A stretch of 64,000 bases of DNA, taken from the NCBI GenBank assembly GCA_035506195.1, contig DATJPV010000048.1, positions 2,011 to 66,010 of the forward strand, written 5' to 3'. The DNA comes from Patescibacteria group bacterium (GTDB lineage: Bacteria; Omnitrophota; Gorgyraeia; Gygaellales; Profunditerraquicolaceae). The position numbers and the translations under genes are program-made. Of the stretch, positions 2,072 through 28,648 are shown piece by piece. The notes under the pieces are model-generated. The model had not been told where the DNA came from, did not search any database, and worked only from the letters and a program-made list of their open reading frames with translations. How positions within the stretch are numbered: position 1 is the stretch's first letter; each line of letters opens with the position of its first letter.

Positions 2072-2074
2072 TCT

Positions 2075-4623: not shown

Positions 4624-4664
4624 AGCGCCTATCATTTCGCAGGGGGCATGGTATAATTTAACAA

Positions 4665-6089: not shown

Positions 6090-6102
6090 GCCGAACTTCC
6101 TT

Positions 6103-11234: not shown

Positions 11235-11324
11235 GCGCCCGTAATAAAATGTATTGCGCAAGGTCGTATTTAGACTATACTTGAACAAAGAGAAAGGTTT
11301 TAGCAAGGGATCAGGAAGGGCTCC

Positions 11325-12365
11325 GTGCAAATGAAAAGGTATGCATATCTGTTGGTGTTCTGCGCGCTGGCCTTGGCGGTATTCATCTTGGCGCCTCATC
11401 ATAAAAGACCGCGCAATATTATTCTTATAGGATGGGATGCCGCCTCGCGGGGCACTGTCCGAAGCCTCCTGGCGCAGGGCAGGCTCCCCAACCTTAAGGC
11501 ATTGGTCTCCCGGGGGGCATTAGTCGATATCGACGCGCAGAGAAGGACGGATACCGCAGCCGGCTGGGCGGAGATATTAACCGGCTATCCGCCCGAAGAT
11601 ACCGGTGTCTGTTGCAATGCGCATTATCAGGCGATACCTCAGGGATACACCGTTTTTGAGCGCCTGAAAGATTTTTTCGGGAAAGAGAATTTTGTGACCC
11701 TGGCGGCCATCAGCAAAAAACACCACATGGATTGCACTCCTGCGCAGAAATATGACAGGATGGAGGATGTGCCGCAAGAACACCAGGGTGTCGTAAGGCC
11801 TGACGGCCGGGGCGTATATTTTCCCGGCGCGCCGTTTGCCAATGCGAAGGGCACAATGGATGTGTTCGCCAATGACCTGCGCAGTAATGACAGAGTACTG
11901 AAGGTAGCGCTGAAGCTGTTGGAGCAGTATCGTAACAAGCCGTTCTTTTTCTTTATACATTTCGGCGATATCGATGGTGCGGGGCATCAGTACGGAGGCA
12001 TCTCTCCGCAGGTAAACGACGCGATTATTTCATGCGATACTTGCTTGGGTGCGTTAATGCAGAAATTAAAAGAATATGGGATATACGACAAGACGCTGCT
12101 GTATATCACCGCCGACCATGGGCTTGATAAGGATGTAGTCTGTCCCGGGCATCACAACGCCGCCCTTATTTTCCTGGCAACCAATAATGCACGGGTCATC
12201 CGGCGCGGCACCAGGATCGACATTACCCCTACCATACTCGATGATTTCGGCATAGACCTAGGAAAGATCAGGCCGGAACTTCCAGGCAGGGCCTTGACCA
12301 ATTTGAAGCGATGCAGGTATTGCATAAGGGTGCATGAGGGCTCCGGCGGCGAGGAAGGGCAATAG
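11325..12365 (+). CDS. alkaline-phosphatase-superfamily enzyme, type I phosphodiesterase/nucleotide pyrophosphatase (PF01663)-like, membrane anchored
   Basis: It has an N-terminal TM and the metal-ligand motifs GWDAASRGT (Asp + Ser/Thr nucleophile region), FGDIDGAGHQYG (D..GH.YG) and TADHGLD. Confidence 0.65.
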   Translation: MQMKRYAYLLVFCALALAVFILAPHHKRPRNIILIGWDAASRGTVRSLLAQGRLPNLKALVSRGALVDIDAQRRTDTAAGWAEILTGYPPEDTGVCCNAHYQAIPQGYTVFERLKDFFGKENFVTLAAISKKHHMDCTPAQKYDRMEDVPQEHQGVVRPDGRGVYFPGAPFANAKGTMDVFANDLRSNDRVLKVALKLLEQYRNKPFFFFIHFGDIDGAGHQYGGISPQVNDAIISCDTCLGALMQKLKEYGIYDKTLLYITADHGLDKDVVCPGHHNAALIFLATNNARVIRRGTRIDITPTILDDFGIDLGKIRPELPGRALTNLKRCRYCIRVHEGSGGEEGQ

Positions 12366-13974
12366 CGTGGATGTCTTTTTGGCGGCCATATGCCTGGTTA
12401 TGCTGGTTCTCATCGGATCAAGAGAGGGCTGGGGGAAGGTATTAAAGATTACAGCTGCCTGGTTCCTGTTTTCGGTCGGTATGATGGAGATCTTCCTGCT
12501 TTCCGGCCACCAAAGGCACTTCCGTATTTGGCTCCCCAGTTATTTCAGCGTGTTCGGCCCTCTGCAATGGTGCGCCTGGGGCATCGGGCTTATTACTTAT
12601 TATGTAATAGGGGCAAAGACCAGGATAGCCTGCTGGATCAGGAGGCTCGCCTTGCTGTTGCTTGTGTGCATACCCATCCCCGTAATTTTCTTGTTCATCT
12701 TTCGGTTTGGGGTAAATGTGCTATATTGGGACCAGTGGCGGATAGTCCCTATCCTGGCGAGGTATCTTAACGGCACCCTGCAGTTCTCCCACCTTTTTGA
12801 AGGCATTGTTGAGCAGCGCGAATTTTTTGGCACGGTGATCACGCTTGTCACGGCCCGCCTGACTCACTACAATACCTGCGTTGAGATGTATGTGAATGCG
12901 TGCATATTATTGTTGTCATTCTGCGTAGTCTTGGCGTCTCTCAAAGAGCGCGCTCCCCTTGTTGGGAACCTGTTTTTTCTTGCGCCGATCTCCTATTTGA
13001 TGCTGGGCCCGAATCAAATCGCCAATATTTTGTATGGGGCCGGGCTTAGCTGGGTTTTGGTCCATACCTGCGCCATCGCCAGCCTCTATTTTCTTTATTC
13101 GGCCACGAAGCAGCCCGCCAGGCGCAAGGCGACCTGTACCCTCATCGTAGCCATGCTCTTGGCTACCGTCGCCACCTTTTCCTTGTCGATGGGCATGTGC
13201 GTATGGTTTGCGGGGTGTTTTTTAGCAGGCCGCCGGCCTCGGCCCGTCATCGGTAGCTGGGCGGCCCTGGGCTTGTTGGAATCGCTGTTCTATTTTCATA
13301 CCCCGGCGTTCCTTGCGCAGATGCTCGCAAAACCGCTTGCCGGCGCAGCCTCCCTGCCCGCCGCCAACCACGTTGGCTACCTAAGTTTTTTCCCTTTATT
13401 CCTTGGTTCTGCGGTAACCGGAAGATTCAATTCTTTGGCTTGGGGCATCTCGTTGTTGTCATTGTCGGCCGTTTGTCTGGCCTTGCTATATGCATATGGC
13501 CAATGGAGGCAGAACGCGCTGTGGTTAAGTATCCTGCTATTCGCGACCTGCGCAACCCTGTTGATCTTTGTAGGAAGGGTTTGCGCAAGGGCAGACCTGG
13601 CGGAAGGGCTTGCGCACAGGTATAAGATCTTTGCAATCCTTATCGTTGCCTCGCTGTATATGCTGATGTTGAATTTGCGCTTCGCCGTGAGGGGCAATTT
13701 TGTCGTTACCGGCTCATACGCCGTGCTTACCTGCCTGATCGTTATCGGCGCTCCCGTTTCTTTTTTCAATAACCTTGCCTATGCGCAAGTACAAAAAAGC
13801 CTTTACCAAAAAGCCGCGTCTGTGCTGGTTGACTACGAGGTTCAATCAGACGATGTCTTGCAGGCCCTTTACAAAGAACCGCAGTTTGTCAGAAAGAACG
13901 CGGCAGTGCTCAAGAAACTCAAATATAACGTTTTCAGCGTGCAACCGCAAAACATGCCGAAAGGAGCCCCATGA
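12334..13974 (+). CDS. polytopic integral membrane protein (>=12 TM), unknown function
   Basis: It has a long run of hydrophobic helices and no soluble catalytic motif that I recognise. It is bracketed by two NPP-family paralogs. Confidence 0.4.
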   Translation: MRAPAARKGNSVDVFLAAICLVMLVLIGSREGWGKVLKITAAWFLFSVGMMEIFLLSGHQRHFRIWLPSYFSVFGPLQWCAWGIGLITYYVIGAKTRIACWIRRLALLLLVCIPIPVIFLFIFRFGVNVLYWDQWRIVPILARYLNGTLQFSHLFEGIVEQREFFGTVITLVTARLTHYNTCVEMYVNACILLLSFCVVLASLKERAPLVGNLFFLAPISYLMLGPNQIANILYGAGLSWVLVHTCAIASLYFLYSATKQPARRKATCTLIVAMLLATVATFSLSMGMCVWFAGCFLAGRRPRPVIGSWAALGLLESLFYFHTPAFLAQMLAKPLAGAASLPAANHVGYLSFFPLFLGSAVTGRFNSLAWGISLLSLSAVCLALLYAYGQWRQNALWLSILLFATCATLLIFVGRVCARADLAEGLAHRYKIFAILIVASLYMLMLNLRFAVRGNFVVTGSYAVLTCLIVIGAPVSFFNNLAYAQVQKSLYQKAASVLVDYEVQSDDVLQALYKEPQFVRKNAAVLKKLKYNVFSVQPQNMPKGAP

Positions 13975-15011
13975 TGAAACGTACATATGTGTATATACTG
14001 GCTGTCTGCGTATCGATCGCTGCGGCATGCGCCTTGGCGGTTACGTGTGTTACCGCGGGTATCGGCAAGAGGCCGCGCAGCATCATTCTTGTGGGCTGGG
14101 ACGCTGCCTCCCGGGACACCGTCCAGGGGCTCATGGCTCAAGGCAGGCTTCCGAACCTTGCGGCGCTGGTTTCCGGCGGCGCGTTCGTCGATATCGATGT
14201 CCAGAGAATAACCGATACTAAAGCCGGCTGGACGGAGATATTGACCGGCTATCCTCCGGAGATAACGGGTACGCACGACAATCACATGTATCAGCAGATA
14301 CCGCAGGGGTATACCGTTTTCGAGCGCCTGCAGGATTTTTTCGGGAAAGGCAATTTCATTACCGTAGCAGTGATCAGTAAGAAGCTCCACATGGATTGCT
14401 TTCCTCCGCAGAGATATGACAGGATCGAGGATGTGCCGGAAGATTATCAAAGCACCGTCAGGACCGAGCTTAATCCGGATGGCCAGGGATGCGTATATTT
14501 TCCCGGCGAGCCGTTCGCCGGCATAAAAGACAAGATAGACGTATTTGTGAATGACCTGCGTTCCAATAGTAACACCCTGCAGGAGGCGTTGCGGCTCCTT
14601 GAGAAGTACCGCCAGAAGCCGTTTTTCTTCTTCGTGCATTTTGGCGATATCGACGGCGCCGGGCACAAATTTGGAGTAAACGCCCCGCAGGTGGCTAATG
14701 CGGTTATCTCATGCGACGCCTGTTTAGGCGCCCTGGTGCAGAAGCTGAAGGAATACAAGATATACGATACGACGAGGATCTATGTCACTGCCGATCACGG
14801 GCTTGATACAATAGGCAATAGCCATCGCGACGCGCCTTTTATTTTTCTGGCGACCAATAATCGCAAGGTTATACGGGACGGCAGGAGGATAGATATCGCC
14901 CCTACCATACTTGAAGATTTCGGCGTAGACTTAAGCAAGATCAAGCCGGCGCTTCCCGGCTGGTCTTTGACCAAGATCAAAAGGTGCAAATATTGCGTAA
15001 GAAAGCGGTAA
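13971..15011 (+). CDS. alkaline-phosphatase-superfamily enzyme (NPP/PF01663-like), paralog of 11325-12365
   Basis: It aligns colinearly with the upstream paralog (VGWDAASRDT, FGDIDGAGHKFG, TADHGLD). It has an N-terminal TM. Confidence 0.65.
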   Translation: MMKRTYVYILAVCVSIAAACALAVTCVTAGIGKRPRSIILVGWDAASRDTVQGLMAQGRLPNLAALVSGGAFVDIDVQRITDTKAGWTEILTGYPPEITGTHDNHMYQQIPQGYTVFERLQDFFGKGNFITVAVISKKLHMDCFPPQRYDRIEDVPEDYQSTVRTELNPDGQGCVYFPGEPFAGIKDKIDVFVNDLRSNSNTLQEALRLLEKYRQKPFFFFVHFGDIDGAGHKFGVNAPQVANAVISCDACLGALVQKLKEYKIYDTTRIYVTADHGLDTIGNSHRDAPFIFLATNNRKVIRDGRRIDIAPTILEDFGVDLSKIKPALPGWSLTKIKRCKYCVRKR

Positions 15012-15820
15012 GAATAATAACCGGCAGCTACGGCTGCCTGTGCGCATTGTTGCTGGTGGCCGGCTGTGCGGGATTGCCCAGCATAAGGGTACCGCAGAAG
15101 GCATACGATGCCGCTATCCCCATACCGGACGCGCGCCTGCCGGATTACGAAAAACTGACCTATGAAATCAGGTGGCTCGGCCTGCGCGTGGGCACGCTTA
15201 CTGCCTCCATAGTCGAAAGGAAACAGTTCCGGGACAGGGAAGTATATGTCCTTGAGGCCACCGTGAAGACAAGCGCGTTCTTTTCGAGCATCTACAAGAT
15301 AGAGGACCGTTTTGTTTCCTATGTGGACGCGCAAAAGTTGTATACCATACGGCACGAGGTATACCGCAGGGACGGCGCATACAAAAAGGACGCCGTCACC
15401 GAGTTCGACCAGGAAAGCCATAAGGCCCATTTCAAGAATTCCCTGGATATGTCGGAGAAAACCTTTGATATACCCGCGGGGGTCCACGATATCTTGAGCG
15501 CCTGTTATTATTTCATGCTTTTGCCGCTGAAGGTAGGGGATAAGATCGAGTATTCCGTATGCAATAACGAGACCAATTACCAGTTCCTCGGCCTTATCCA
15601 GCCTAAGGTATTGATACGGGTGCCTGCTTTGGGCAGGAAGGAGAGCGAGGCGTTTCTCATTCAGCCTTACGCCAAGCTTAAAGGGGAGAAGGTGGATAAA
15701 GGCAACGTAAGCGCGTATTTCAGCTGCGAAAAAAGAAGGCTGCCCTTATTGGCTACCGTGAAGGGCCCGGTATTCACGGAGGTTACTATCGTGCTTTCCA
15801 AGATAGAGAACCGGCAGTGA
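14984..15820 (+). CDS. putative lipoprotein (possibly DUF3108-like)
   Basis: There is a lipobox LLVAGCAG after a signal peptide and no enzymatic motifs. The DUF3108 resemblance is only suggested by an N-terminal YEIRWLGLRVG motif. Confidence 0.4.
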   Translation: MQILRKKAVRIITGSYGCLCALLLVAGCAGLPSIRVPQKAYDAAIPIPDARLPDYEKLTYEIRWLGLRVGTLTASIVERKQFRDREVYVLEATVKTSAFFSSIYKIEDRFVSYVDAQKLYTIRHEVYRRDGAYKKDAVTEFDQESHKAHFKNSLDMSEKTFDIPAGVHDILSACYYFMLLPLKVGDKIEYSVCNNETNYQFLGLIQPKVLIRVPALGRKESEAFLIQPYAKLKGEKVDKGNVSAYFSCEKRRLPLLATVKGPVFTEVTIVLSKIENRQ

Positions 15821-17346: not shown

Positions 17347-17898
17347 ATGCAGGATATCCCCAGAGATATTTTGATCCGGGCATCCCGGGGCAACATCGAA
17401 GCCTTCGAACATATATACAAGGCTGTTTCGGGATTTGTGTACAATGTGGCCCTGAGGATAACCAACAGCAGCCATGATGCCGAGGAGGTCACCCAGGACG
17501 TGTTCATGAAGGTGTACCGGAGCCTTCCCGGATTCCAGTTCCGCTCTTCTCTGCGGACGTGGATATACCGGATCACCGTTAATACCGCGCTCAACAGTTG
17601 TAAGAAGGCGATTAAGGAAACAAGCCGGCGCGGCGATTACGATACGGCGGTCAGGACCCAGAGCGCCCCTGAAACCGCAGATGCGCGCGCTACGCAGGCC
17701 GACCATGAGAGGGCCGTTGCGTCGCTGTTAAGCGCGCTTAACCCGGACCAGCGCGCCTGCGTCGTATTAAGGGAGATCGAAGGGTTTAGCTACAAACAGA
17801 TATCCGAGGCTTTAAAGATCAATATCAATACCGTTCGCTCAAGGCTTAAGAGGGCCAGGGAAACCCTCCTGGCTTCAAGGAAAAGCGAGGTAGGCTAA
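17347..17898 (+). CDS. ECF-type RNA polymerase sigma-70 factor
   Basis: Region 2 is VTQDVFMKVYRSLPGFQ...RTWIYRITVNTALN and region 4 HTH is QISEALKININTVRSRLKRARE. Confidence 0.85.
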   Translation: MQDIPRDILIRASRGNIEAFEHIYKAVSGFVYNVALRITNSSHDAEEVTQDVFMKVYRSLPGFQFRSSLRTWIYRITVNTALNSCKKAIKETSRRGDYDTAVRTQSAPETADARATQADHERAVASLLSALNPDQRACVVLREIEGFSYKQISEALKININTVRSRLKRARETLLASRKSEVG

Positions 17899-17899
17899 G

Positions 17900-18391
17900 A
17901 TGGATTGCGCACACATAAAAGAACTCATTCTGACCGGTTACACCGACGGCCAGATCGACGCCAGGCTCCAGGAACAGGTCCGGGCGCATCTGGCCGCCTG
18001 CGTTGCCTGCCGGCAGCTGGCAGACGCCGTACGCAAAACCGCCGTTGAGCCGTTTAAGAAGGCAGAGCGGATCGGGCCGCCGGATGCCGTATGGCAGCGG
18101 ATAAAACAGGCCCTCATCCTGGAAGAAGAGCGCCGGCCGGCCGGCGTGCTTGAACGCCTGCGCGACTTCCTGCAGGGCGCCTATTCCCTTCCCCGGCCCG
18201 TATATGCCACTGCCGCAGCGATGCTGGTGCTTCTGGCCGCAGCTGCCTTCGCAAGGCTTCCGGCACAACAGCAAAGGACGGTAAACAGGTATTTGCAGGA
18301 GGAAGTAGAGTTCATTACCGATCTTAAAGTAGAGCCCAGGACGGCTGCGTATGATTCTCTTTCCACGAAGATCGAAAAAAGTTTTCTCTAA
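17900..18391 (+). CDS. anti-sigma factor, zf-HC2 type, with C-terminal TM
   Basis: It lies 2 nt after the ECF sigma stop. It has the HLAACVACRQ zinc-finger motif typical of zf-HC2 anti-sigma factors and a central hydrophobic helix. Confidence 0.7.
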   Translation: MDCAHIKELILTGYTDGQIDARLQEQVRAHLAACVACRQLADAVRKTAVEPFKKAERIGPPDAVWQRIKQALILEEERRPAGVLERLRDFLQGAYSLPRPVYATAAAMLVLLAAAAFARLPAQQQRTVNRYLQEEVEFITDLKVEPRTAAYDSLSTKIEKSFL

Positions 18392-18441
18392 AGGGGAACT
18401 TTTTCCCTGATGCGCATGTCTAAGATGACGGGAGGAAAAAA

Positions 18442-18903
18442 ATGAAGACCATGGTGAAACGGTTATGCATATATGCGACTGCGGCGGCTTTTGTATCCTG
18501 GGCGCCGCTTGCGCACGCGCAGCAGGCCGCCGGCCGTCAGGGGCCGCAAGCGGACAGGGGCCAAGAACTGGATAATTTTATCAAAGACCTGAATCTTACC
18601 CCTCAACAGCAGGAACAGATCAAGAAACAGCGTAACGAGCACTTTGAGAAGAACAGGGGAGCAGGCGATGAATTGCGGCAGAAAAGGCTGAAGCTGAAGC
18701 AGGAGCTGGAAAAAGAGGTCCCCGACAGGAAGCTGATCAATGCGCTTGTTGCCGATATCAACACGTTGACCGCAAGAAAACTCCAGGACCGGGTCGACAG
18801 CATCCTTGCGATAAAAGAGATATTGACGCCGCAGCAGTATAAAGCATTCCAGGAGAAGATCAGGAGCCATGCCGGGCCGCGAAGAGAAGGGCCGTGGCAG
18901 TAA
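18442..18903 (+). CDS. periplasmic Spy/CpxP-family (LTxxQ) protein
   Basis: It has a signal peptide and two LTPQQ motifs (LNLTPQQQEQIKKQ and ILTPQQYKAFQEK) within helical Lys/Glu-rich segments. Confidence 0.6.
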   Translation: MKTMVKRLCIYATAAAFVSWAPLAHAQQAAGRQGPQADRGQELDNFIKDLNLTPQQQEQIKKQRNEHFEKNRGAGDELRQKRLKLKQELEKEVPDRKLINALVADINTLTARKLQDRVDSILAIKEILTPQQYKAFQEKIRSHAGPRREGPWQ

Positions 18904-18925
18904 ACACCGAGAGGAGGGTGTGTAT

Positions 18926-19519
18926 ATGTCAAAATTGCTATTAGTCATGGTGTTGGGGGCATTGTTGTTGGTGACGGGCAGCCGAGCTTCTGCCGCGGAA
19001 ACGGTATTGTTCGGCTTTGAAAAAGACGTCTCCGGATGGGAGATCCCGGATTGGGCGATGGAAAAAGAAGATTATGTGGCCAAGAAGATCGCGGTGGATT
19101 CGACGTATGCCGACGAAGGCAAATCTTCCCTCAAGATGGACGTGAAGTTCCCGGGCGGTAAATGGACGGCCGCCTATGTCGAGATACAGCAGTACTTTGA
19201 CTGGAGTGCGTATAGCGCAGTTTCCGTAGATGTCTATCTGCCTCCCACTGCGCCGACAGGCCTGAAATCAAAGCTTATTCTAACCGTTGGGGAATCATGG
19301 CTTTGGGTAGAGATGGCGCGCAGCACTCCCTTGGAGCCCGGTAAGTGGACGACCGTTACCGCTAATCTATTGTCGGGGAGTACCGATTTTCGGGCTACCG
19401 TTGACGAGGCATTCCGGAAAGACGTCCGTAAGCTCGGGGTGAGGATCGAATCGAATATGAAACCGGCGTATGAAGGCCAGGTATTTATCGACAATCTCAG
19501 ATTGGCCGGGAAATCATAA
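18926..19519 (+). CDS. secreted hypothetical protein (beta-rich, possible carbohydrate-binding module)
   Basis: The ATG at 18926 is preceded by GAGGAGGG and followed by a signal peptide (MSKLLLVMVLGALLLVTGSRASA). No catalytic motifs are present. The track ORF 18869-19519 is the same frame extended upstream. Confidence 0.45.
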   Translation: MSKLLLVMVLGALLLVTGSRASAAETVLFGFEKDVSGWEIPDWAMEKEDYVAKKIAVDSTYADEGKSSLKMDVKFPGGKWTAAYVEIQQYFDWSAYSAVSVDVYLPPTAPTGLKSKLILTVGESWLWVEMARSTPLEPGKWTTVTANLLSGSTDFRATVDEAFRKDVRKLGVRIESNMKPAYEGQVFIDNLRLAGKS

Positions 19520-20023: not shown

Positions 20024-20207
20024 TTACGGCCTGTTTTATTGCGCGTATGACCATTAATTTCAATATGTTACGCTTCTCCTGAACAAGGTTTTTCCCCGGA
20101 ATGGCATGCGCTTAAAAATTTCCCTTGAAATTTTCTCTGTTTGTAGTATACTATATCTAATACGAAGGCCAGTTATAGCTTACGGTTAATTTAAAAAGTG
20201 ATTACTT

Positions 20208-20238
20208 AATCCGTATGATATAAATACGGATTTTTTTT
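20208..20238 (+). terminator. hairpin (9-bp AT-rich stem AATCCGTAT/ATACGGATT, 7-nt loop) followed by T8, immediately abutting the ATG at 20239
   Basis: The sequence reads aatccgtat gatataa atacggatt tttttt ATG. It may be an intrinsic terminator or a leader attenuator. Confidence 0.4.
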
Positions 20239-21288
20239 ATGGAGTCCCGCATGCACCCCCAACGCAAAAGCAACCTTACCGTTATCATCCCTGCGTACAA
20301 CGAGGCCAAGACTGTGGGCGATACCATCCGCAGCATTCAGGCTCAGACGATCGCCGCCGATGAGATCATTGTCATCGACGACTGCTCTCAGGATGCGACC
20401 GCCGAGGTCGCGCGCAGCCTGGGGGCAAGGGTGATCTCACCCGCCTGCAATACCGGTTCCAAGGCAGGAGCGCAGAATTTTGCCTTGCAGTTCGTGGAGA
20501 CGGAATTCGTCATGGCGGTTGATGCCGATACGACGCTTGCTCCGGATGCCATCGAGAAGCTGCTGGCTGCCTTATCCGAACAGGGGATGGCTGCGGCCTG
20601 CGGCTTTGTGGTGCCGCGGTACGTCAAGACGGTCTGGGAGCGGGGCCGCTATATCGAATACCTGTTTGCCTTTTCGTTCTTCAAGGAGATACAGGATTAT
20701 TACGAAAAGCCGCTGATCTCTTCCGGTTGTTTCTCTATCTACCGCACCCACATCCTGAAGCTGCATAAGGGTTGGTCCACGCGCACCCTGGCAGAAGACA
20801 TGGACCTGACCTGGACATTCTATCAGATGGGCCACGGCGTCCGTTTTGTGCCCGAGGCATTCTGCTATCCCATCGAACCCCATAATTTCCTCTTTATGCG
20901 CAGGCAGCTGAAACGCTGGTCGCACGGTTTTATGCAGAACGTGCGCCTGCACTGGTGGAAGGTCATGGAAGTCTCGTATTTGCGTTCCATCATTGCCGTG
21001 GCATTATGGGACGCGACGGTCGCGTCTCTGGCCTATCTTTTCCTGCTTCCGTTGCTGGCTCTGTGGTTCAGGAATCCCTTGTTCCTTTTAGGTTACGTCA
21101 TTGACGCTCCCGTAGTGCTGGTGCCTATCCTTTTGAACATCAAGAAAAGAAAGGAGATCCCCCGCATCCTTTCGAGCGTTCCTTCGTTTTTCTTCCTCAG
21201 GGCCGTCAACAGCATTTTTATGCTCGAAGCTTTTTGGAATGAGCTGGTCATGAAGCACACATTCTCCACCTATGAGAAAGGCCACTAA
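20239..21288 (+). CDS. processive family-2 glycosyltransferase (polysaccharide synthase; NodC/IcaA/cellulose-synthase-like) with C-terminal TM helices
   Basis: It has a GT-A N-terminus (LTVIIPAYNE, IIVIDDCSQD), a DAD motif and the Q-x-x-R-W motif (RRQLKRWSHG) followed by several TM helices. Confidence 0.75.
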   Translation: MESRMHPQRKSNLTVIIPAYNEAKTVGDTIRSIQAQTIAADEIIVIDDCSQDATAEVARSLGARVISPACNTGSKAGAQNFALQFVETEFVMAVDADTTLAPDAIEKLLAALSEQGMAAACGFVVPRYVKTVWERGRYIEYLFAFSFFKEIQDYYEKPLISSGCFSIYRTHILKLHKGWSTRTLAEDMDLTWTFYQMGHGVRFVPEAFCYPIEPHNFLFMRRQLKRWSHGFMQNVRLHWWKVMEVSYLRSIIAVALWDATVASLAYLFLLPLLALWFRNPLFLLGYVIDAPVVLVPILLNIKKRKEIPRILSSVPSFFFLRAVNSIFMLEAFWNELVMKHTFSTYEKGH

Positions 21289-21291
21289 CGC

Positions 21292-21645
21292 ATGACTGCG
21301 GGACTTCCCGGAACCGGTATCGGCGGATTCTTTTACCTGCTCAGCGCCCTGCTGATGCCGGTGAATGAGTGCATCTATACGGTCCTGGGGCGCAGCAGGC
21401 CTGCGCGTTGGCGTAAGGTTTCCCGCCAGACCCTCTGCTCGCTGGGCATCTTGGCCGGCATATGGTGTACCGCATGGATCCTGGCCCATATCCTGCACTG
21501 CGCGCATCAGCTGTCTTCCTCCGCACCCTCTGAAGTGCCCCAACTTTTGCGCATCGCTGCGCTTACTTTCGGCCTGGCGACACTGCTGGCCGTGATCCTG
21601 GTGACGGAGATCTTCGGGATCATCGCCGCCTTGCGCAAGCGCTAA
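21292..21645 (+). CDS. small 3-4 TM membrane protein, unknown (possible synthase accessory subunit)
   Basis: It starts 4 nt after the synthase stop and is hydrophobic throughout. Confidence 0.4.
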   Translation: MTAGLPGTGIGGFFYLLSALLMPVNECIYTVLGRSRPARWRKVSRQTLCSLGILAGIWCTAWILAHILHCAHQLSSSAPSEVPQLLRIAALTFGLATLLAVILVTEIFGIIAALRKR

Positions 21646-21740
21646 CCCCTTAGCTGGCCCGCATCTTTCCGGCATTACATCCTTACAAGTTTGGATTGAC
21701 TTATCCCGCCGCAAATAGTATTATGGGGTATGAAAAGGAG

Positions 21741-22472
21741 ATGCCGATGGATAAACTGCTGCTAAGGATAAAAAGGCTGTTGCAATATTTTGCCGTCTCC
21801 TTTGCGGCGATCGAGCTTTGGTATCTTGCCAGCGACCCTCCCGTAAACCCGAATATCCTGCGTATCCAGTTGACCGTCTCCGCAATATATGCGCTTACCG
21901 CCATGGGGTTGATGCTCTGCGTTAGATTCTATATCGATTACAAGAAACAACAGCGCCAGCTGTCGGCAAAGATGGCAGAAGAGGATCTGGCCAGGCGCCA
22001 CGAAGCGCATGCGCAAGAGAAGCAGCAGGAGGCCCAGCGCAGGGAAAAGCTCAAGGCGCAATACGGCAATCTTGACGTTGACGAGATTGTCTTTCACGGC
22101 GCGCTCAACGCGGTTGACAAGAGGTTCTTGCTGACGGATATCCACAAGTTTTCCTGGAGCGAAGCAGAAGGCCTCTTAAAGATCTCGGAGGACGGCCTTC
22201 AGAAGACAAAGCTCCAGCATGTCATAGGAAAGATAATCAAAAAAGCGGACCAGATGTACGGGGATATTCCTTCCGACGATGCGCGAAGCCCCATCCCCGA
22301 TAACGTAAGGATGCTGGTATGGCAGAGGGACGGCGGCAAATGCATCGTCTGCGGCGCGCAGGAGAACCTTGTATTTGATCATATCACGCCGGTTGCAAAA
22401 GGCGGCAGCACCGCCGAGATAAACATCCAGCTGCTTTGTGAGAGGTGTCACCGGGAGAAGCGGGAGCCTTGA
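21741..22472 (+). CDS. membrane-anchored coiled-coil HNH endonuclease-domain protein
   Basis: An AGGAG lies 4 nt before the ATG at 21741. It has two N-terminal TM helices, a charged coiled-coil (QEKQQEAQRREKLKAQ), and a C-terminal HNH/Zn-ribbon (CIVCGAQENLVFDHITPVAKGG...NIQLLCERCHREK). The track ORF 21696-22472 is the same frame extended upstream. Confidence 0.7.
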   Translation: MPMDKLLLRIKRLLQYFAVSFAAIELWYLASDPPVNPNILRIQLTVSAIYALTAMGLMLCVRFYIDYKKQQRQLSAKMAEEDLARRHEAHAQEKQQEAQRREKLKAQYGNLDVDEIVFHGALNAVDKRFLLTDIHKFSWSEAEGLLKISEDGLQKTKLQHVIGKIIKKADQMYGDIPSDDARSPIPDNVRMLVWQRDGGKCIVCGAQENLVFDHITPVAKGGSTAEINIQLLCERCHREKREP

Positions 22473-22480
22473 ACTGCGCA

Positions 22481-24496
22481 ATGAAGAAAGCCATTCTTAT
22501 CCTATCCGCAGCCGCCCTGTTTTTGTGTTGTTCCGGCGGCATATCTTTTGCCGCTAAAGCGCAAGCCACTGCCGCTACAAATGTAGTCCTCCAGCCGGCG
22601 GCTTTGCAGAATGTTTGGCTGTGGGTAGTCGACCCGCAGGAAAAGGAGCGCCGCGTATATATCCGGGTAGCCGCAGGCAGCCTATCGGTTAGCGCCTTTA
22701 GCCCCGAAGACCCCCGCCGTTGCTCATTCGCGCAGCTTGACTTGAATTCGGGAAAGATCCTGCTCATCGACCCGAAAGCACTGGAAGATGTCATACAGCG
22801 CATCCAGCCTTCCCAGGCCCAGGATTATTTAGAAGCGATACGCCTGATGCTCGGGGCGGTCAATACCGCCTATGATATCGGCACCAGCCTCCAGAAGGGC
22901 CAGATCGAGCCGATCCGGGGTTATTTGCAGGCGATCGAATCGCGCTTCGTGACACCCATTCCCGCCAGCGCTCATTGGCAGGTCCGAACGGCGGATCAAC
23001 CCTGGAATGATTCCCGCGGGATCACTTCAAGCTCGGTCGATACCGGCAAAAACGAGCTCGTCCTGCAGGCGGATCTTGACGCCTCCCGGGCTCTTTACGG
23101 TAAAGGCGAGGTCTATATCTATCCCGGCGACATACCCGAGCTGGGGCAGCCAGAGCTGGACATGAAGGCCAAGAGGTTGGCGATGGAGGTGTTCATACCC
23201 GCAGGGTTCGTCGGCGACCCCAAGAACCCGGAACATCTGCGCCTCTTCGCCAAGAGCGGTGATAATTGGCAATCCTGCTACGGCATCTGGAGAAAAATCG
23301 GCTATGCAGACGAAGGCACCTGGGTGGCCGTGGAGTTAAACCCCGCCCGGGATCCGGCCAGCTGGAGGGATGCGGATTTTAATCCCGTCAGGATCTGGGA
23401 GTTCGGCCTTGCCTTTAATAAGGGAAGCGGCCGCTACCAGGGGGATGGCCTGAGGATACGCAATGTCATGATCGAAGCCGGCAGAGAATCCGATATGCAG
23501 CCGCCGGTAGTTACCGATACCCCTCCGGTCGATATTCTGCAATTCGTTGGTTCTTCCGGCCGCAATCTTAATTTCGACGAATATAATTACGGCTGGTGCG
23601 TGGGGGAATTTCCTTCTATCTGGGGGACGGGCCAGGCCCAAGGGTTCAGCACTCCCGCAGGCAGTCAAAAGCTTAGGCAGGGGCTGCTTGATCTTAAAAG
23701 CAAGGGCATCAAGACCGTCAGGCTCATGGCATTGTTTGGGGACCTGCGCACGGGGATACTCCAGGATTCAAACGGCAACTTTATCTTTGACAGGCGGGGC
23801 AACCTGCAGTTTGACGGCAAGGTATACGCCGACGTGAAAGCGTTTTTTGACCTGCTCCATGAAACGGGCATGAAGGCGGCAGTCGGCTTGTTCGACTTTC
23901 GCATCGCCGACGATATCAGCCGGGAAGGCACGCGCGACGCAAGCTGGGCAGTCGGAGAACATCCCGAACTACTCACCGACCGCAAGGCTCAGAACGCGCT
24001 GGTGCGGCTGTTCAGCGGTTTCTTTGCCAAAATATACGCGAAAGGATTCCTGGCGTATAGCCCCAACGAAGTCGTTTCATTCTGGGAGGTTATGAATGAG
24101 CCGGAGGCCGTCTGCGCGGCGGATTTTGCGCGGGTAGCCAGTTTTCATGACCGGTTTTTTGACTTGATCCGCAGGAATGCCCCCGGCGCAAAAGTTACTA
24201 CCAGCAGCCTCAGCGTAGATAGCGCGTTCCGTTTTTGGAAAGACAAGGTTGACGTCATTTCCGTCCACCGCTATCCGAATATCGAACGCCTGGACCCGTC
24301 TAAACCGGTAGGCGCTTACGGCTTCGGCAGCAAACCGGTAGTCTTCACGGAGTTTGGGGACGTCGATATGCGCATCGACGATGCCTTAAGCGACATATAT
24401 GCTTCAGGCGCAGGAGGGCTCTTGTTCTGGGAGGACAGCTATTATCAGTTTTCCGAAGACGAGTATCAGGCCTGGCTTGCTGCGCACCTTCCTTAG
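22481..24496 (+). CDS. secreted glycoside hydrolase, clan GH-A (GH5-like)
   Basis: It has a signal peptide (MKKAILILSAAALFLCCSGG). The catalytic acid/base context is FWEVMNEPE and the nucleophile context is VVFTEFGD, both typical of (beta/alpha)8 clan A hydrolases. Confidence 0.55.
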   Translation: MKKAILILSAAALFLCCSGGISFAAKAQATAATNVVLQPAALQNVWLWVVDPQEKERRVYIRVAAGSLSVSAFSPEDPRRCSFAQLDLNSGKILLIDPKALEDVIQRIQPSQAQDYLEAIRLMLGAVNTAYDIGTSLQKGQIEPIRGYLQAIESRFVTPIPASAHWQVRTADQPWNDSRGITSSSVDTGKNELVLQADLDASRALYGKGEVYIYPGDIPELGQPELDMKAKRLAMEVFIPAGFVGDPKNPEHLRLFAKSGDNWQSCYGIWRKIGYADEGTWVAVELNPARDPASWRDADFNPVRIWEFGLAFNKGSGRYQGDGLRIRNVMIEAGRESDMQPPVVTDTPPVDILQFVGSSGRNLNFDEYNYGWCVGEFPSIWGTGQAQGFSTPAGSQKLRQGLLDLKSKGIKTVRLMALFGDLRTGILQDSNGNFIFDRRGNLQFDGKVYADVKAFFDLLHETGMKAAVGLFDFRIADDISREGTRDASWAVGEHPELLTDRKAQNALVRLFSGFFAKIYAKGFLAYSPNEVVSFWEVMNEPEAVCAADFARVASFHDRFFDLIRRNAPGAKVTTSSLSVDSAFRFWKDKVDVISVHRYPNIERLDPSKPVGAYGFGSKPVVFTEFGDVDMRIDDALSDIYASGAGGLLFWEDSYYQFSEDEYQAWLAAHLP

Positions 24497-24517
24497 GAAC
24501 CTGCGCCGGGGAATTGT

Positions 24518-26866
24518 ATGATAGCCAGAATGTTCAATCAAAAATATAACGCATTCGTCCTGGGCGCGCTGCTGTTATCGGGCGCCCTTGTCTATTCCGG
24601 CACTTTTTACAGTTCTTTCCATTTCGACGACGTTGCCTCCATCATCGAGAATCCCGCCATAAGGAACATCTTGGATCTGCGGGCTATCTGGAATTTCTGC
24701 CCGGCCCGTTTTATAACCTACCTGTCGATAGCTCTCAATTACCGCTTCAACCATCTGCACGTATTCGGTTATCACCTCCTGAACCTGGCTATCCACCTGG
24801 GTTCGGCAGTCCTGACCTGGCGGCTTATGCTGCTTACCCTGTCTACCCCGGCAATGAGGGGGCGCAAGATCGCCGCGCATGCCAGGCTTATCGCTTTTTT
24901 TGCGGGGTTGGTTTTTGTGACGCACCCCCTCCAGACCCAGGCCGTCACCTACATCATCCAGCGAGCGGCTTCTCTGGCAACCCTGTTTTATCTGGCGTCG
25001 CTGAACTTCTATGTTGCCTCAAGGCTCTTACGGCAACAAGGGCAAAACCCCGCAGCCTCAAGGCTCTTTTATTCCGGTTCGTTGATCGCCGCGGTCATCG
25101 CCATGTTCACGAAAGAGACGGCAGCAACCATCCCTTTTGCGGTTTTATTGTACGAGGCCTGTTTCTTAAAAACCAAAGAAAGGCTGGACTGGAAGCATCT
25201 GGCTCCTTTTTTCGCGGCCCTGTCGATCATTCCCCTGACGATGCTTATTACCGGATCGGTAGATGTCATGGGGATCCGCCTGGTCCAGAGATCCGCCCCT
25301 ACCAGCATTTCCCCCTGGCAGTATCTTTGTACGCAGTTCCAGGTCATGGCCACCTACCTCAGGCTTCTGCTGATACCGATACGCCAGAACCTTGACTATG
25401 ATTATCGCGTTGCAAAAGGCCTGCTGGAATTGCCCGTTTTGTCCAGCCTCGTTCTTTTAGCCGCGCTCCTGGCCGCCGCGATCCGCATGCGCTCTAAATA
25501 CAGATTGCTCTCCTTCGGCATTTTCTGGTTTTTCCTGACGCTGTCGGTTGAATCAAGCATTATCCCGATCAGGGATATCATTTTCGAACACCGGCTTTAT
25601 CTGCCGATGGTGGGTTTTAGTTTTTTTGCGGTAGGCGGCATATATTACCTCTTTGAGAACAGGGCCCTGAAGCCGGCGGTCATAGCGCTCTTCATCATAA
25701 CTTCGTGTTACGGGGTCCTTTCTTACAGAAGGAACATGGTTTGGAGAAACGATTTTACCTTATGGAATGATACGGTGCAGAAATCGCCCGGGAAGGCAAG
25801 GCCCTACAATAACCGCGGGGTTGCCTATGGGGATCAGGGCAATTTCGCTCAGGCCATCTCCGACTACACCCGGGCCATCGCCATAAGCCCCGATTACGCG
25901 GAGGCCTATTATAACCGCGCAAACGCCTATGATAAGCAAGGCAATCTTTCCCAGGCCATCGCCGACTACACCCGGGCCATCGCCATAAGCCCCGCTTACG
26001 CAGCGGCCTACAATAACCGCGCGAACGTCTACAATAAGCAGGGCAATTTCGCTCAGGCCATCGCCGATTGCATCCGCGCCATTGAAATAAACCCCGATTA
26101 CGCAGAGGCCTATTATAACCGCGGCCTTGCGTATGATAAACAGGGCGACCTCCCGCAGGCCGTCGCCGACTACGCCAAAGCCATTTCCCTGAACCCCAAC
26201 CTTGAGAAAGCCCACAACAACCGCGGGGTTATCTATGGTAAGCAGGCTAACCTCGCCCAGGCCATCGCCGACTACAGCAAGGCCATTGAAATAAATCCGG
26301 ATTACGCAGAGGCTTATTATAACCGCGCAAACGCCTATGATAAGCAAGGCAATTTTACCCAGGCCATCGCCGACTATACCAAAGCCGTTGCCTTAAACCC
26401 CAACTACGCAGCGGCCTACAATAACCGCGGCGTTGCCTATGGCGCGCGAGGCAAGTTTGCGCAAGCCATTGCCGACTGCACCAGGGCCATTGAGATAAAC
26501 CCCAACCTCGAACAGGCCTATAACAACCGCGGCCTTGCCTATGATAAGCAGGGCGACCTTCCGCAGGCCGTCGCCGACTACACCAAAGCTATTGCCGTCA
26601 ACCCCGTGTATACCGAGGCCTATTATAACCGCGGCCTTGCCTATCATAAACAAGGCAATTTCACCCAGGCCGTCGCCGACTATACCAAGGTCATTGAAAT
26701 GGCTCCTCGTTTTGCCCCTGCCTACAACAACCGAGGCGCTGCGTATTATCGCACGGCAGAGTATGGCAAAGCCTGGGCGGATGTGCACCAGGCAGAGGCA
26801 TTAGGGGCCGTGGTTGACCCCCGGTTCCTTGAATCCCTGAAAAAGGCCTCCGGAACGGATAAATAG
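24518..26866 (+). CDS. GT-C/PMT-TMTC-like polytopic membrane domain fused to a ~13-unit TPR array
   Basis: The N-terminal ~420 aa contain ~10 TM helices (DUF1736/PMT_2-like). The C-terminal region has 13 tandem 34-aa TPRs with the consensus AxAYYNRGxAYxKQGNFxQAIADYTKAIxINP. Confidence 0.6.
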   Translation: MIARMFNQKYNAFVLGALLLSGALVYSGTFYSSFHFDDVASIIENPAIRNILDLRAIWNFCPARFITYLSIALNYRFNHLHVFGYHLLNLAIHLGSAVLTWRLMLLTLSTPAMRGRKIAAHARLIAFFAGLVFVTHPLQTQAVTYIIQRAASLATLFYLASLNFYVASRLLRQQGQNPAASRLFYSGSLIAAVIAMFTKETAATIPFAVLLYEACFLKTKERLDWKHLAPFFAALSIIPLTMLITGSVDVMGIRLVQRSAPTSISPWQYLCTQFQVMATYLRLLLIPIRQNLDYDYRVAKGLLELPVLSSLVLLAALLAAAIRMRSKYRLLSFGIFWFFLTLSVESSIIPIRDIIFEHRLYLPMVGFSFFAVGGIYYLFENRALKPAVIALFIITSCYGVLSYRRNMVWRNDFTLWNDTVQKSPGKARPYNNRGVAYGDQGNFAQAISDYTRAIAISPDYAEAYYNRANAYDKQGNLSQAIADYTRAIAISPAYAAAYNNRANVYNKQGNFAQAIADCIRAIEINPDYAEAYYNRGLAYDKQGDLPQAVADYAKAISLNPNLEKAHNNRGVIYGKQANLAQAIADYSKAIEINPDYAEAYYNRANAYDKQGNFTQAIADYTKAVALNPNYAAAYNNRGVAYGARGKFAQAIADCTRAIEINPNLEQAYNNRGLAYDKQGDLPQAVADYTKAIAVNPVYTEAYYNRGLAYHKQGNFTQAVADYTKVIEMAPRFAPAYNNRGAAYYRTAEYGKAWADVHQAEALGAVVDPRFLESLKKASGTDK
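25790..26720 (+). repeat. nucleotide-level tandem repeat (~102-nt period) encoding the TPR array
   Basis: Near-identical DNA strings (gccatcgccgactacacc..., aaccgcg..gcctatgataagcagggc) recur every 102 nt. Confidence 0.7.
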
Positions 26867-26876
26867 TGGTATAATA
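26866..26876 (+). promoter_or_regulatory. extended -10 element GTGGTATAAT predicting a leaderless transcript for the 26884 gene
   Basis: A TGnTATAAT lies at 26867-26875 and the ATG at 26884, so a TSS at ~26882 is expected. There is no SD. Confidence 0.35.
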
Positions 26877-26883
26877 TAAGAAT

Positions 26884-27822
26884 ATGGAATCTGCTCATAT
26901 ACAACCTGACCGGTTCGCGTTTAGGATGGTGGCATTGATCCTGGTATGCAATGCCGCCGGCAGCACCTTGTACTTTCTGTGGAGTCTATACGCCAGGGCC
27001 GTGGGGCCGACTACCGGCAGGAGCATGGCGTTCATCCTGGTAGATTTGTTTTTTGCTTTTGCGCTTTTTCGGCAGAAGCTATGGGCGCGGCCGTGGGTTA
27101 TTGCGCGCTCTGTCCTGGGAGCGCTTCTATGGGTGGGAGTTTCCGTCTACCAGAGGAACCCCTTTGGCGCGGTCACGCAGGTGGTCTTCTTCGGCGCGAT
27201 CATCGCCCTTCTGAGCGGCTGGGTCGCAAAGCCGGTCGCCAGGGTCCTGGGAGTGGCGGCGATAGGTTTGATCGCCGCCATCGGTTTCAATAATCTCCAG
27301 GCGATTGCCAACTACAACAAGATCGCCGCCCAGGTTATCAATGCGGGAGCCCGTGAGTATGTAAGCGAAAAATTCGGTTACCGCATTACTACGCCGGAGA
27401 ACTGGAAGATCATCAAACGCAGCGATTTTGGCAAGGTAGACAAGTCCCTGCTTACTACCGATGCCGAGATCGCCATGATCAATAAAGAAGGGACCGGGTA
27501 TTGCCTGCTCATCCCGGAAGAGCTTAAAGGTTACGGCACGGCTTATGACCTTCAAATGGTGCGTAACGCGGTACTGGAAAATGCCAAGCGCATAAAAGGA
27601 GTGGAGGTCCTGGAGAATAATCTTGCCTCGCCGTATGGAGAGGCCGGATTCCAGATCAAATACGGCGTTTGGTCGGAAGGGTTCCATTACCGCTACCTTG
27701 TGCTTTACAGCGTGTATCAAAGAACAGGCATACAGTTGCTGGTGTGGGCTTTTGATTCTAATGCCGACAGCGTGTTCAGCGATGTCGTCAAGAACGTCGC
27801 CGGCAAAGTTACCTTTAAATAA
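26884..27822 (+). CDS. membrane protein (4-5 TM) with C-terminal periplasmic/soluble domain, unknown
   Basis: Hydrophobic helices span the N-terminal 140 aa. There are no motifs. Confidence 0.4.
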   Translation: MESAHIQPDRFAFRMVALILVCNAAGSTLYFLWSLYARAVGPTTGRSMAFILVDLFFAFALFRQKLWARPWVIARSVLGALLWVGVSVYQRNPFGAVTQVVFFGAIIALLSGWVAKPVARVLGVAAIGLIAAIGFNNLQAIANYNKIAAQVINAGAREYVSEKFGYRITTPENWKIIKRSDFGKVDKSLLTTDAEIAMINKEGTGYCLLIPEELKGYGTAYDLQMVRNAVLENAKRIKGVEVLENNLASPYGEAGFQIKYGVWSEGFHYRYLVLYSVYQRTGIQLLVWAFDSNADSVFSDVVKNVAGKVTFK

Positions 27823-27839
27823 GAACGGAGGGCCCCGGG

Positions 27840-28172
27840 ATGAAAAAGACCGTTTTCTTTATAGTGGTGTGCCTGGTTCTTTGCGGCAGCCTGTTCGTGC
27901 TCGCCCAGAATAACCAGGAGCAGGCAGCGCCGGATGGCATGGAGTATATCCAGGTAAGTAATGGCTATAAGATCCTTGTCCCCAAGGGCATGAAATTGAT
28001 ACCGGTAGGCTCGTACGAGAGGGTCGAGAAGCTCGATACGTATGTAGCCCGCAGGTTCGAAGAGATGGACAAGCGTTTAAAAGAGATCGAAACCGGCCAG
28101 GCCCAGATGCAGGGAGAGCTTGCGCAGTTAAAGGCGGCGGTAGCCGAGTTGCGCACTAAGATCAAGGAGTAA
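27840..28172 (+). CDS. small secreted coiled-coil protein
   Basis: It has a signal peptide and a C-terminal heptad-like LKEIETGQAQMQGELAQLKAAVAELRTKIKE. Confidence 0.4.
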   Translation: MKKTVFFIVVCLVLCGSLFVLAQNNQEQAAPDGMEYIQVSNGYKILVPKGMKLIPVGSYERVEKLDTYVARRFEEMDKRLKEIETGQAQMQGELAQLKAAVAELRTKIKE

Positions 28173-28193
28173 GCCTTACAAAGGAGGGCAAGA

Positions 28194-28562
28194 ATGAAGG
28201 CTAAAGGCATATTTTTACTCGCGTGCGGCATAGCGGGAGGGGTTTTTGTGTATTTTTTTGATATCATCATGAAAAGGCCTCTTAATTACCTCGGCCCCAA
28301 ATCTATGGTGGCGATGGCGATCTGCGCGATCCTGGCGATCGCCGGGTTTCGCATACTGCAGAAGGGCTCCCAAAGGGCGCACTTGAACAAAAGACAGGTC
28401 ATTATCTCATGGCTGGTAGCGGCTGTCTTCTGTCTCTTGTATGCCTGGGCCGTGTTTGCGATACCTGATCCTCTGGAGGCCTGGTGGTTTATGGTCTCTT
28501 GCACTGCCCCCGCCATGATCGTAGGGGCGCTGCTGCTTTATCTGTTCGGACGCAAGAAGTAA
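28194..28562 (+). CDS. small 4-TM membrane protein
   Basis: Hydrophobic segments are present, and a terminator follows. Confidence 0.4.
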   Translation: MKAKGIFLLACGIAGGVFVYFFDIIMKRPLNYLGPKSMVAMAICAILAIAGFRILQKGSQRAHLNKRQVIISWLVAAVFCLLYAWAVFAIPDPLEAWWFMVSCTAPAMIVGALLLYLFGRKK

Positions 28563-28591: not shown

Positions 28592-28620
28592 AAAACCCGT
28601 CTTTTTTGGCGGGTTTTTAT
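28592..28620 (+). terminator. rho-independent terminator
   Basis: The sequence is aaAACCCGtcttttttggCGGGTTtttat, a GC stem plus T-run, after the 28194 gene. Confidence 0.6.
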
Positions 28621-28648
28621 TTGCCAAAACCGGTATTTTTGATATAAT
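28621..28648 (+). promoter_or_regulatory. sigma70-like promoter for purB (TTGCCA-N16-TATAAT)
   Basis: TTGCCA is at 28621-28626 and TATAAT at 28643-28648. The SD AAGGAGA is at 28661 and the ATG at 28672. Confidence 0.5.

Follow-up and report, generated by a model that had tools for sequence, protein, structure and literature searches.

A packed Omnitrophota gene string read as a mosaic of independent glycan and envelope modules around a two-gene glycosyltransferase unit

The DNA analysed here, referred to below as the window, is a stretch of 64,000 nucleotides (nt) from contig DATJPV010000048.1 of an Omnitrophota bacterium, and nearly all of it is coding on the + strand. Between positions 20239 and 28562 the window holds eight + strand open reading frames (ORFs), designated A to H: a family 2 glycosyltransferase (GT2; A), a small membrane partner (B), an HNH protein (C), a hydrolase (D), a GT-C enzyme with tetratricopeptide repeats (TPRs; E) and three downstream ORFs (F, G and H). 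The gaps between them measure 3-51 nt, and all are within 3-21 nt except for the 51-nt gap between B and C. A first-pass annotation had combined A (20239-21288), B (21292-21645), D (22481-24496) and E (24518-26866) into one synthase-dependent exopolysaccharide (EPS) system. All four ORFs exist on the + strand; C (21696-22472), between the partner and the hydrolase, and F to H up to 28562 had been left out. The components of this string evolve and move independently.

A (20239-21288, + strand) is a membrane GT2 of 349 amino acids (aa) from the BcsA/PgaC/NodC class, with a cytoplasmic GT-A domain and three C-terminal membrane helices. It matches the Pfam families Glycos_transf_2 (E 5e-32), Glyco_trans_2_3 (E 5e-19), Glyco_tranf_2_3 and Chitin_synth_2 (2e-6). 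The best NCBIfam model is PgaC_IcaA (TIGR03937; E 8e-33, residues 6-273), which gives 114 bits against an equivalog cut-off of 422.3 bits; NodC reaches 60 bits and GT21 33 bits. In an alignment of 26 sequences, D47/D48, D95xD97, E186-D187 and Q223xxR226W227 are invariant. The same is true of polar residues lying inside the C-terminal membrane helices (W257 D258, Y286 D289, R321 N324 E335) and of E-K-G-H in the C-terminal YEKGH, at a mean column identity of 71%. Hydropathy analysis gives three hydrophobic segments at the C-terminus and none at the N-terminus. The longest match in the PDB profile search is BcsA (profile positions 21-307); DPMS, ArnC and GtrB-like chains cover only profile positions ~14-132, corresponding to the first ~100 residues. 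At the level of sequence, A is shown to carry the full catalytic signature of the inverting beta-glycan synthases (D, DxD, ED, QxxRW), and the earlier description of a GT2 with processive-synthase features, QxxRW and C-terminal transmembrane (TM) helices is borne out by the invariant motifs and the BcsA/PgaC-class matches. Pfam and NCBIfam scans revealed no PilZ or GGDEF domain on A or anywhere in A-H, in agreement with the first report that the synthase has no domain binding cyclic di-GMP (c-di-GMP). The PilZ protein noted at 45738 is confirmed (45738-46142; PF07238, E 2e-10) and sits 19 kb downstream, with purB, purL and purF among the genes in between.

More than 3,600 homologues of A were found in a word-indexed search. 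The best 120 listed are 63-74% identical and 341-400 aa long, and their sources include Omnitrophota, Planctomycetota, Acidobacteriota, Elusimicrobiota, Deltaproteobacteria and Methanoperedens. The scan for A orthologues covered one genome per GTDB species and was alignment-based, the A sequence alone as the query having given nothing. It yielded 43 orthologous loci (L006-L048) with 48-71% identity from more than 12 phyla, including Methanotrichaceae, Methanosarcinaceae and Nitrososphaeraceae. Taken together, the A-B pair spans 48-74% identity across more than 12 bacterial phyla, methanogenic and methanotrophic archaea and Nitrososphaeraceae. A plasmid search gave only matches of up to 37% identity and no evidence for a plasmid vector; the scan of viral contigs gave only relatives of up to 40% identity, none of which has a B homologue.

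B (21292-21645, + strand) begins 3 nt past the stop codon of A and encodes a 117-aa membrane protein with 2-3 hydrophobic helices. Searches of Pfam, NCBIfam and PDB sequences found no match for it. The family shares the N-terminal motif M-x-A-G-L-P-G-T-G-I-G-G-x-F-Y, which is followed by two poorly conserved hydrophobic helices. Using tblastn and a hidden Markov model of B, a B homologue was detected immediately 3' of A in 40 out of 40 orthologous loci having downstream DNA, so the small membrane partner proposed at first stands. B is absent beside distant GT2s (identity up to 36%, 37 loci checked) and from the viral loci. Clustering of all neighbouring ORFs across the A loci left A and B as the only conserved genes, and the 114 flanking proteins fall into 157 different Pfam families, none of which occurs in more than 4 loci. 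Since B follows A in all 40 loci and nothing else is conserved around the pair, A-B is an autonomous two-gene module placed in arbitrary genomic contexts. Literature searches turned up no paper on the A-B family; the cyanobacterial Ogt was considered as a literature match and rejected, being a GT41 enzyme. The commonest neighbour of A-B is a protein with an adenylate/guanylate cyclase domain (4 of the 114 flanking proteins), the sole recurrent signalling domain and one too rare to call.

In three Gemmatimonadota loci (L030, 9022-10944; L024, 1392-3227; L008, 3826-5371), B continues in frame into one more hydrophobic segment, which is followed by 4-5 TPRs and then a strand-rich domain of ~300 aa. 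The C-terminal domain of these fusions has no PDB or Pfam match. Through this fusion, the partner may carry its own periplasmic scaffold or barrel for the product of A-B.

D (22481-24496, + strand) is a secreted hydrolase composed of a signal peptide, a variable region, a module resembling a carbohydrate-binding module (CBM; ~22952-23479) and a (beta/alpha)8 catalytic domain similar to glycoside hydrolase (GH) family 5 (~23537-24493). The ORF is open from 22445, and the homologues begin at an MKK codon matching 22481. D itself has no Pfam (including PF00150), NCBIfam or PDB sequence match, and only six close homologues were present in the indexed database. The exhaustive profile search increased the number of relatives to 437 and resolved two modules, one CBM-like (profile positions ~171-340) and one catalytic (profile positions ~365-688), which recur singly, together or repeated. 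PF00150/GH5 is matched by 15 of 31 wider relatives (best E 5.2e-12) and by three of the six close ones. Residues R435, N551, E552, H608, Y610, E636 and W662 are invariant or nearly so, a set which we take to be the classical GH5 active-site pattern. Both glutamates of the NEP and TEFG contexts recognized by the first-pass annotation (E552 and E636) are invariant; judged from the alignment and the predicted structure, E552 would be the acid/base and E636 the nucleophile.

The AlphaFold2 (AF2) model of D residues 340-683 (predicted local distance difference test score, pLDDT, 90.8) is a (beta/alpha)8 barrel. In this model, strand 205-212 (strand 4) ends at N212-E213, corresponding to N551-E552, and strand 293-298 (strand 7) contains E297, corresponding to E636. 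The best Foldseek matches are the GH5 beta-1,4-mannanases 4oou, 3vup, 5y6t and 2c0h (E 5e-12 to 5e-11, TMq 0.60-0.66), followed by GH5_7 and GH5_18 enzymes and then by GH1. The clan GH-A assignment made earlier is therefore upheld by the barrel model, the GH5 structural matches and the PF00150 hits of the relatives, and the signal peptide expected of a periplasmic enzyme is present. D shares with the GH5 mannanases (4oou, 3vup, 2c0h, GH5_7) the barrel, the invariant Asn-Glu after strand 4, the Glu of strand 7, and the R, H-x-Y and W residues. It differs from them in its identity to solved enzymes of only 12-17%, in falling below Pfam detection and in the extra CBM-like module. The CBM-like and GH5-like modules also recur, in up to 8 repeats, in giant proteins of 2,000-7,866 aa (P0250, P0260, P0349 and others), which suggests that giant surface proteins of the Omnitrophota type carry glycanase modules.

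Homologues ~60% identical to D occur in three loci (L001, L002, L003) that have no A, B, C, E or F. Their neighbours there are ATP-binding cassette (ABC) sugar permeases, a solute-binding protein, GH113, GH94, a ROK kinase and a LacI regulator. In the window, a secreted 216-aa CBM-like protein (Mann_GBD_bact/CBM27-like; PF21253 E 1.3e-10, CBM27 E 1e-5) is encoded at 18869-19519 on the + strand, and homologues 54-58% identical to it accompany the D homologues in L001 (two copies) and L002. Because these distant D loci carry the CBM-like protein and lack A-B, it is this protein, and not the synthase, that is the conserved partner of D; the 18869-19519 product is likely a glycan-binding companion of D. 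By BLASTP the middle domain of D shows no similarity to the CBM-like protein, and their profile-profile comparison (probability 14%, E 0.002) is suggestive at most. The order CBM-like gene, A-B-C, D would be compatible with insertion of A-B-C inside an older CBM-D unit.

The GT2 beside the D homologue in L002 was considered as an A orthologue and rejected, being 22% identical over the N-terminal 120 residues only. At 5023-8509 of that locus, a GH94 phosphorylase-like gene and the gene of a 378-aa GT2 of the Glyco_trans_2_3/GT21 type overlap by 11 nt, an unusual pairing located beside GH113 and the D homologue.

E (+ strand) consists of an N-terminal polytopic GT-C domain (24518-25795), with ~11 membrane helices and the motifs DD (D37 D38) and K199-E-T-x-x-T204, and a C-terminal domain (25796-26866) with 10 TPRs (residues 427-766; TPR_1 E 2e-101, 34-residue period) and a short tail. 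The count of 10 replaces the 13 TPRs given initially. Tandem Repeats Finder (TRF) describes the TPR-coding DNA (25803-26696) as a 102-nt unit in 8.8 copies at 71% matches and a 408-nt higher-order unit at 80% matches, and the E orthologue in L004 (a related locus, 79% identity) differs in length. The TPR number of E is changing by recent tandem duplication, with the 408-nt unit as the younger duplication. Residues 1-431 have no Pfam match at E <= 10, and thus neither DUF1736 nor PMT_2. The N-terminal domain has more than 4,600 homologues, mostly from Omnitrophota and nearly all with C-terminal TPRs; several are named 'protein O-mannosyl-transferase' by the Joint Genome Institute (JGI).

The AF2 model of the N-terminal domain is an all-helical polytopic bundle (pLDDT 82.8; predicted template modelling score, pTM, 0.88). 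Foldseek places ArnT (5f15/5ezm; probability 1.00, TMq 0.44-0.46) at ranks 1 and 2, followed by STT3, AglB, PglB, EmbB, Pmt4, Pmt1/2 and ALG3. Every match of probability near 1 is a GT-C enzyme, at marginal E-values (1.6e-3 upward) and TMq of 0.37-0.49. Among 41 sequences, D37 and D38 are conserved at 90% or more, and K199, E200 and T204 are invariant. Comparison by hhalign of the E family with two PMT_2 proteins was negative, a weak test owing to single-sequence targets. According to the published analysis of TMTC1-4 (PMC7801869), members of this family have 11 TM helices, strictly conserve a DD motif in their first luminal loop, carry KET(Q)xxT and end in a TPR domain on the luminal side; ArnT is the structure nearest to them, and prokaryotic homologues exist. 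In view of the DD and KETxxT motifs, the TPR tail and the ArnT-like predicted fold, E is assigned to the bacterial TMTC-like GT-C enzymes, an already known architecture. It resembles TMTC1-4 in its ~11 TM helices followed by TPRs, in the DD of the first extracytoplasmic loop, in KETxxT and in ArnT as the top match. E differs from TMTC1-4 in having no match to DUF1736 (the TM7-TM8 loop) or PMT_2, in being bacterial and periplasmic, and in a TPR number that varies by recent duplication. The GT-C domain proposed earlier for this protein is thus retained. The idea of a TPR array placed on GT-C as a modified porin scaffold is abandoned, as the architecture has more than 4,600 homologues and no beta-barrel porin is present in A-H.

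Relatives of E occur beside a PMT_2 protein (L086), among unrelated genes (P0014 locus) and directly before purB-purL (L088, L089). L088 and L089 have the same purB-purL backbone as the window and lack A-D and F-H. This points to E-purB-purL as the older synteny and to A-D and F-H as lineage-specific neighbours in the window. In L088 (5578-10615), a 67%-identical E homologue is followed by purB and purL and preceded by RHS/YD-repeat proteins.

C (21696-22472, + strand) encodes 258 aa with one TM segment (residues 57-75), a charged stretch resembling a coiled coil and, at the C-terminus, an HNH nuclease domain (PF01844 E 1.1e-10, HNH_5 E 5e-9). Translation probably begins at an ATG within 21723-21747. 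C is kept between B and D at 83-87% identity in L004 and L005 (the latter a related locus of 70% identity) and is absent from all other A-B loci; it is a membrane-tethered HNH protein limited to this lineage. It places an HNH domain on a membrane anchor within a probable glycan operon. A reading of the locus as a defence system was dropped: PADLOC models gave only weak generic nuclease matches, to C, and no match for A, B, F, G or H.

The string is bracketed by a promoter-like site 5' of A (TTGAAA-16-TATACT, 20125-20152, + strand; 10/12 consensus matches) and by a terminator-like hairpin of 11 pairs with a T run 3' of H (28604-28629, + strand), both being pattern matches only. On account of these two sites, A to H probably form a single transcription unit ending near 28604-28629. 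A further promoter-like site before purB (28621-28648, + strand; 11/12 consensus matches), likewise a pattern match only, overlaps the hairpin.

As a whole, the arrangement A-B-C-D-E-F-G-H is kept in L004, the sole relative in which A, B, D and E are found together; L005 keeps A-B-C-D-F-G without E. None of the 43 orthologous A loci contains C, D, the N-terminal domain of E, F or the CBM-like protein. Co-occurrence in relatives had been set beforehand as the test for the four-gene EPS system with a TPR scaffold, and it is not seen outside these two near-identical relatives, one of which lacks E. Since co-occurrence fails and the relatives of D and E sit in other contexts, we lean, somewhat beyond even odds, towards reading 20239-28562 as a mosaic of independently evolving envelope and glycan modules, probably co-transcribed, rather than as one synthase-dependent EPS machine.

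According to this mosaic reading, A and B would form a self-contained two-protein membrane glycosyltransferase. B would supply the membrane helices missing at the N-terminus of A, a role conceptually like that of PgaD towards PgaC and of IcaD towards IcaA. The pair would polymerize a nucleotide sugar into a beta-linked glycan or oligosaccharide, which it would thread across the membrane. A minimal synthase-translocon is favoured for A-B because of the PgaC/BcsA-class motifs, the polar membrane helices, the obligate partner and the Gemmatimonadota TPR fusion. D would be a Sec-exported retaining beta-glycanase with CBM-like and GH5 parts, closest to the beta-1,4-mannanases, and its main job would be to depolymerize an external glycan of the beta-mannan type. 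This catabolic role is suggested by the relatives located in ABC-transporter/GH113/GH94/ROK/LacI loci; it is possible that in this lineage D trims the A-B product. E would use a polyprenyl-phosphate sugar on the periplasmic face in order to glycosylate proteins chosen by its 10 TPRs.

Several points weigh against the mosaic. Co-transcription of A-B with D is the arrangement expected of a synthase with a trimming hydrolase, by the logic of BcsA/BcsZ, and a lineage-specific functional link is possible on these grounds; the A-B-C-D synteny is kept in all three close relatives available. The polymer product of A is predicted from a sequence signature, and A also matches Glyco_transf_21 (E 3.9e-8). 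The D/D/D/QxxRW signature is also found in non-processive lipid glycosyltransferases such as the GT21 glucosylceramide synthase. The GT-C call for E is drawn from a predicted structure with marginal Foldseek E-values and from two short motifs; no Pfam GT-C model matches E, and the hhalign comparison with PMT_2 was negative.

A bolder version of the synthase-translocon is put forward tentatively, and we consider it less probable than the mosaic. Here A-B would be an undescribed, self-sufficient and horizontally mobile two-protein glycan synthase-translocon, in which the 3-helix partner with its invariant GLPGTGIGG completes the GT2 in trans and a polymer is made with no regulator, scaffold or porin dedicated to it. 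The Gemmatimonadota partner would have become fused to TPRs and a possible barrel, and in this Omnitrophota lineage the pair would have been recruited beside a GH5 enzyme trimming its product.

The closest known relatives in design are PgaC-PgaD and IcaA-IcaD, which A-B resembles in the GT2 with D, DxD, ED and QxxRW, in the best NCBIfam match of A and in the small membrane partner directly downstream. The differences are the score of A far from the equivalog cut-off (114 versus 422.3 bits), the lack of N-terminal TM helices in A and the lack of similarity of B to described families; furthermore, neither a PgaA porin nor a PgaB deacetylase is found here or in any of the 43 A loci.

A glycolipid product of A-B is a serious rival, because the signature is shared with GT21 and none of the 40 loci carries an exporter or a regulator, although we hold it to be rather improbable. 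A would then add one or a few sugars to diacylglycerol, ceramide or a polyprenyl-linked glycan, with B as an accessory or lipid-handling protein. Besides the Glyco_transf_21 match, A hits carotenoid and hopanoid glycosyltransferase models weakly. PgaC, BcsA and NodC possess N-terminal TM helices, and A is unlike them in having none. The pair needs no other dedicated gene and occurs in monoderm and diderm bacteria and in archaea. PDB entry 6yv7, a 355-aa membrane GT2, matches A at E 9e-11; it is an archaeal mannosyltransferase that works non-processively and has a minimal cellulose-synthase-like fold. However, the top-scoring characterized families are polymer or oligomer synthases (PgaC/IcaA 114 and NodC 60 versus GT21 33 bits), the invariant polar residues in the membrane helices of A fit a conduit, and the Gemmatimonadota B-TPR fusion points to periplasmic handling of the product.

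Less probable still, and in our judgement unlikely, is the EPS machine as such, with A-B as the inner-membrane synthase, D as the periplasmic trimmer and the TPRs of E as the scaffold, the GT-C domain replacing the porin or decorating the polymer. Same-strand packing with gaps of 3-21 nt, the promoter- and terminator-like sites bracketing A-H and the full arrangement kept in L004 are in accordance with it, as are the synthase class of A and the endo-glycanase-like GH5 of D. A link of TPRs to this synthase family does exist, since B is fused to TPRs in Gemmatimonadota. The likeness to the Bcs, Pga, Pel and alginate systems is that one string encodes a synthase-like membrane GT2 together with a glycoside hydrolase and a TPR protein. 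Unlike these systems, A-H gave no match to an outer-membrane beta-barrel family, the TPRs are attached to an enzyme and not to a scaffold or porin, no c-di-GMP receptor is linked (the only PilZ gene lies 19 kb off, beyond purB, purL and purF), and the components are not together outside two near-identical relatives. E is absent from L005, which keeps A-B-C-D-F-G; neither D nor E lies beside A-B in the 43 loci across phyla; and the TMTC-type catalytic motifs of E are intact. The relatives of E sit in unrelated contexts, and D, which has a signal peptide like the trimming hydrolases of the BcsZ/PelA type, has its relatives in catabolic and not in biosynthetic loci.

Enzymes of the DPM1/GtrB/ArnC type are not known to carry the ED and QxxRW motifs. 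A three-component glycosylation system of the GtrB/GtrA/GtrC or ArnC/ArnEF/ArnT type, with A as the source of a polyprenyl-phosphate sugar, B as its flippase and E as the transferase acting on a periplasmic acceptor, is very improbable: it agrees with the gene content (a GT2, a small multi-TM protein and a GT-C in one string) and with the need of E, as a GT-C class enzyme, for a lipid-linked donor, but A belongs to the synthase class with the acceptor-sugar motifs ED and QxxRW and is matched by DPM1/GtrB/ArnC PDB entries over its N-terminal ~100 residues only, B has no GtrA or SMR family match, the three genes are not linked across genomes (no GT-C neighbour of A-B in other loci, E missing in L005), and a more typical short GT2 (7032-7904) lies upstream near a PMT_2 GT-C (9498-11234).

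With the mosaic as the preferred reading, D and E extend known families. The A-B family is uncharacterized and is the only mildly novel element, still within the concept of a GT2 synthase with a small co-subunit. Its strict pairing and its patchy spread across domains at high identity are mildly surprising, and the module, now clearly defined, offers a practical starting point in the search for a new minimal glycan synthase. The analysis also brought out a divergent GH5/CBM module, which Omnitrophota use in giant surface proteins as well. The locus can further serve as a worked example of tight same-strand packing in small genomes being weak evidence for a shared pathway.

The remaining genes of the string are located downstream of E. 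F (26884-27822, + strand) encodes 312 aa, with five membrane helices in the N-terminal part and a soluble domain at the C-terminus; it directly follows E in the window and in L004, and D in L005. G (27840-28172, + strand; 110 aa), which has a signal peptide and, towards the C-terminus, a stretch rich in repeats and resembling a coiled coil, and H (28194-28562, + strand; 122 aa), with four TM helices and the last position in the packed string, are both kept in L004. Pfam, NCBIfam and PDB sequence searches gave no match for F, G or H. Directly 5' of the ATG of A, where the ribosome-binding site is expected, lies a 9-bp stem-loop with a T run (20208-20238); this hairpin may be a leader element acting on translation initiation, or it may be due to chance.

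Just upstream of the CBM-like gene, an extracytoplasmic function (ECF) sigma factor, a zf-HC2 anti-sigma factor and a Metal_resist (LTXXQ-type) periplasmic protein are encoded at 17347-18903, possibly an envelope-stress regulatory unit near the locus. Farther upstream, a separate envelope-glycosylation cluster occupies 523-15820. Its members include three GDSL+TPR proteins (3190-4623, 4665-6089 and 7901-9520), the short GT2 and the PMT_2 GT-C mentioned above, two phosphodiesterase/alkaline-phosphatase-like proteins (11325-12365 and 13971-15011), a 546-aa protein without a family match (12334-13974), a GDSL lipase-like protein, a methyltransferase and a DUF3108 protein.

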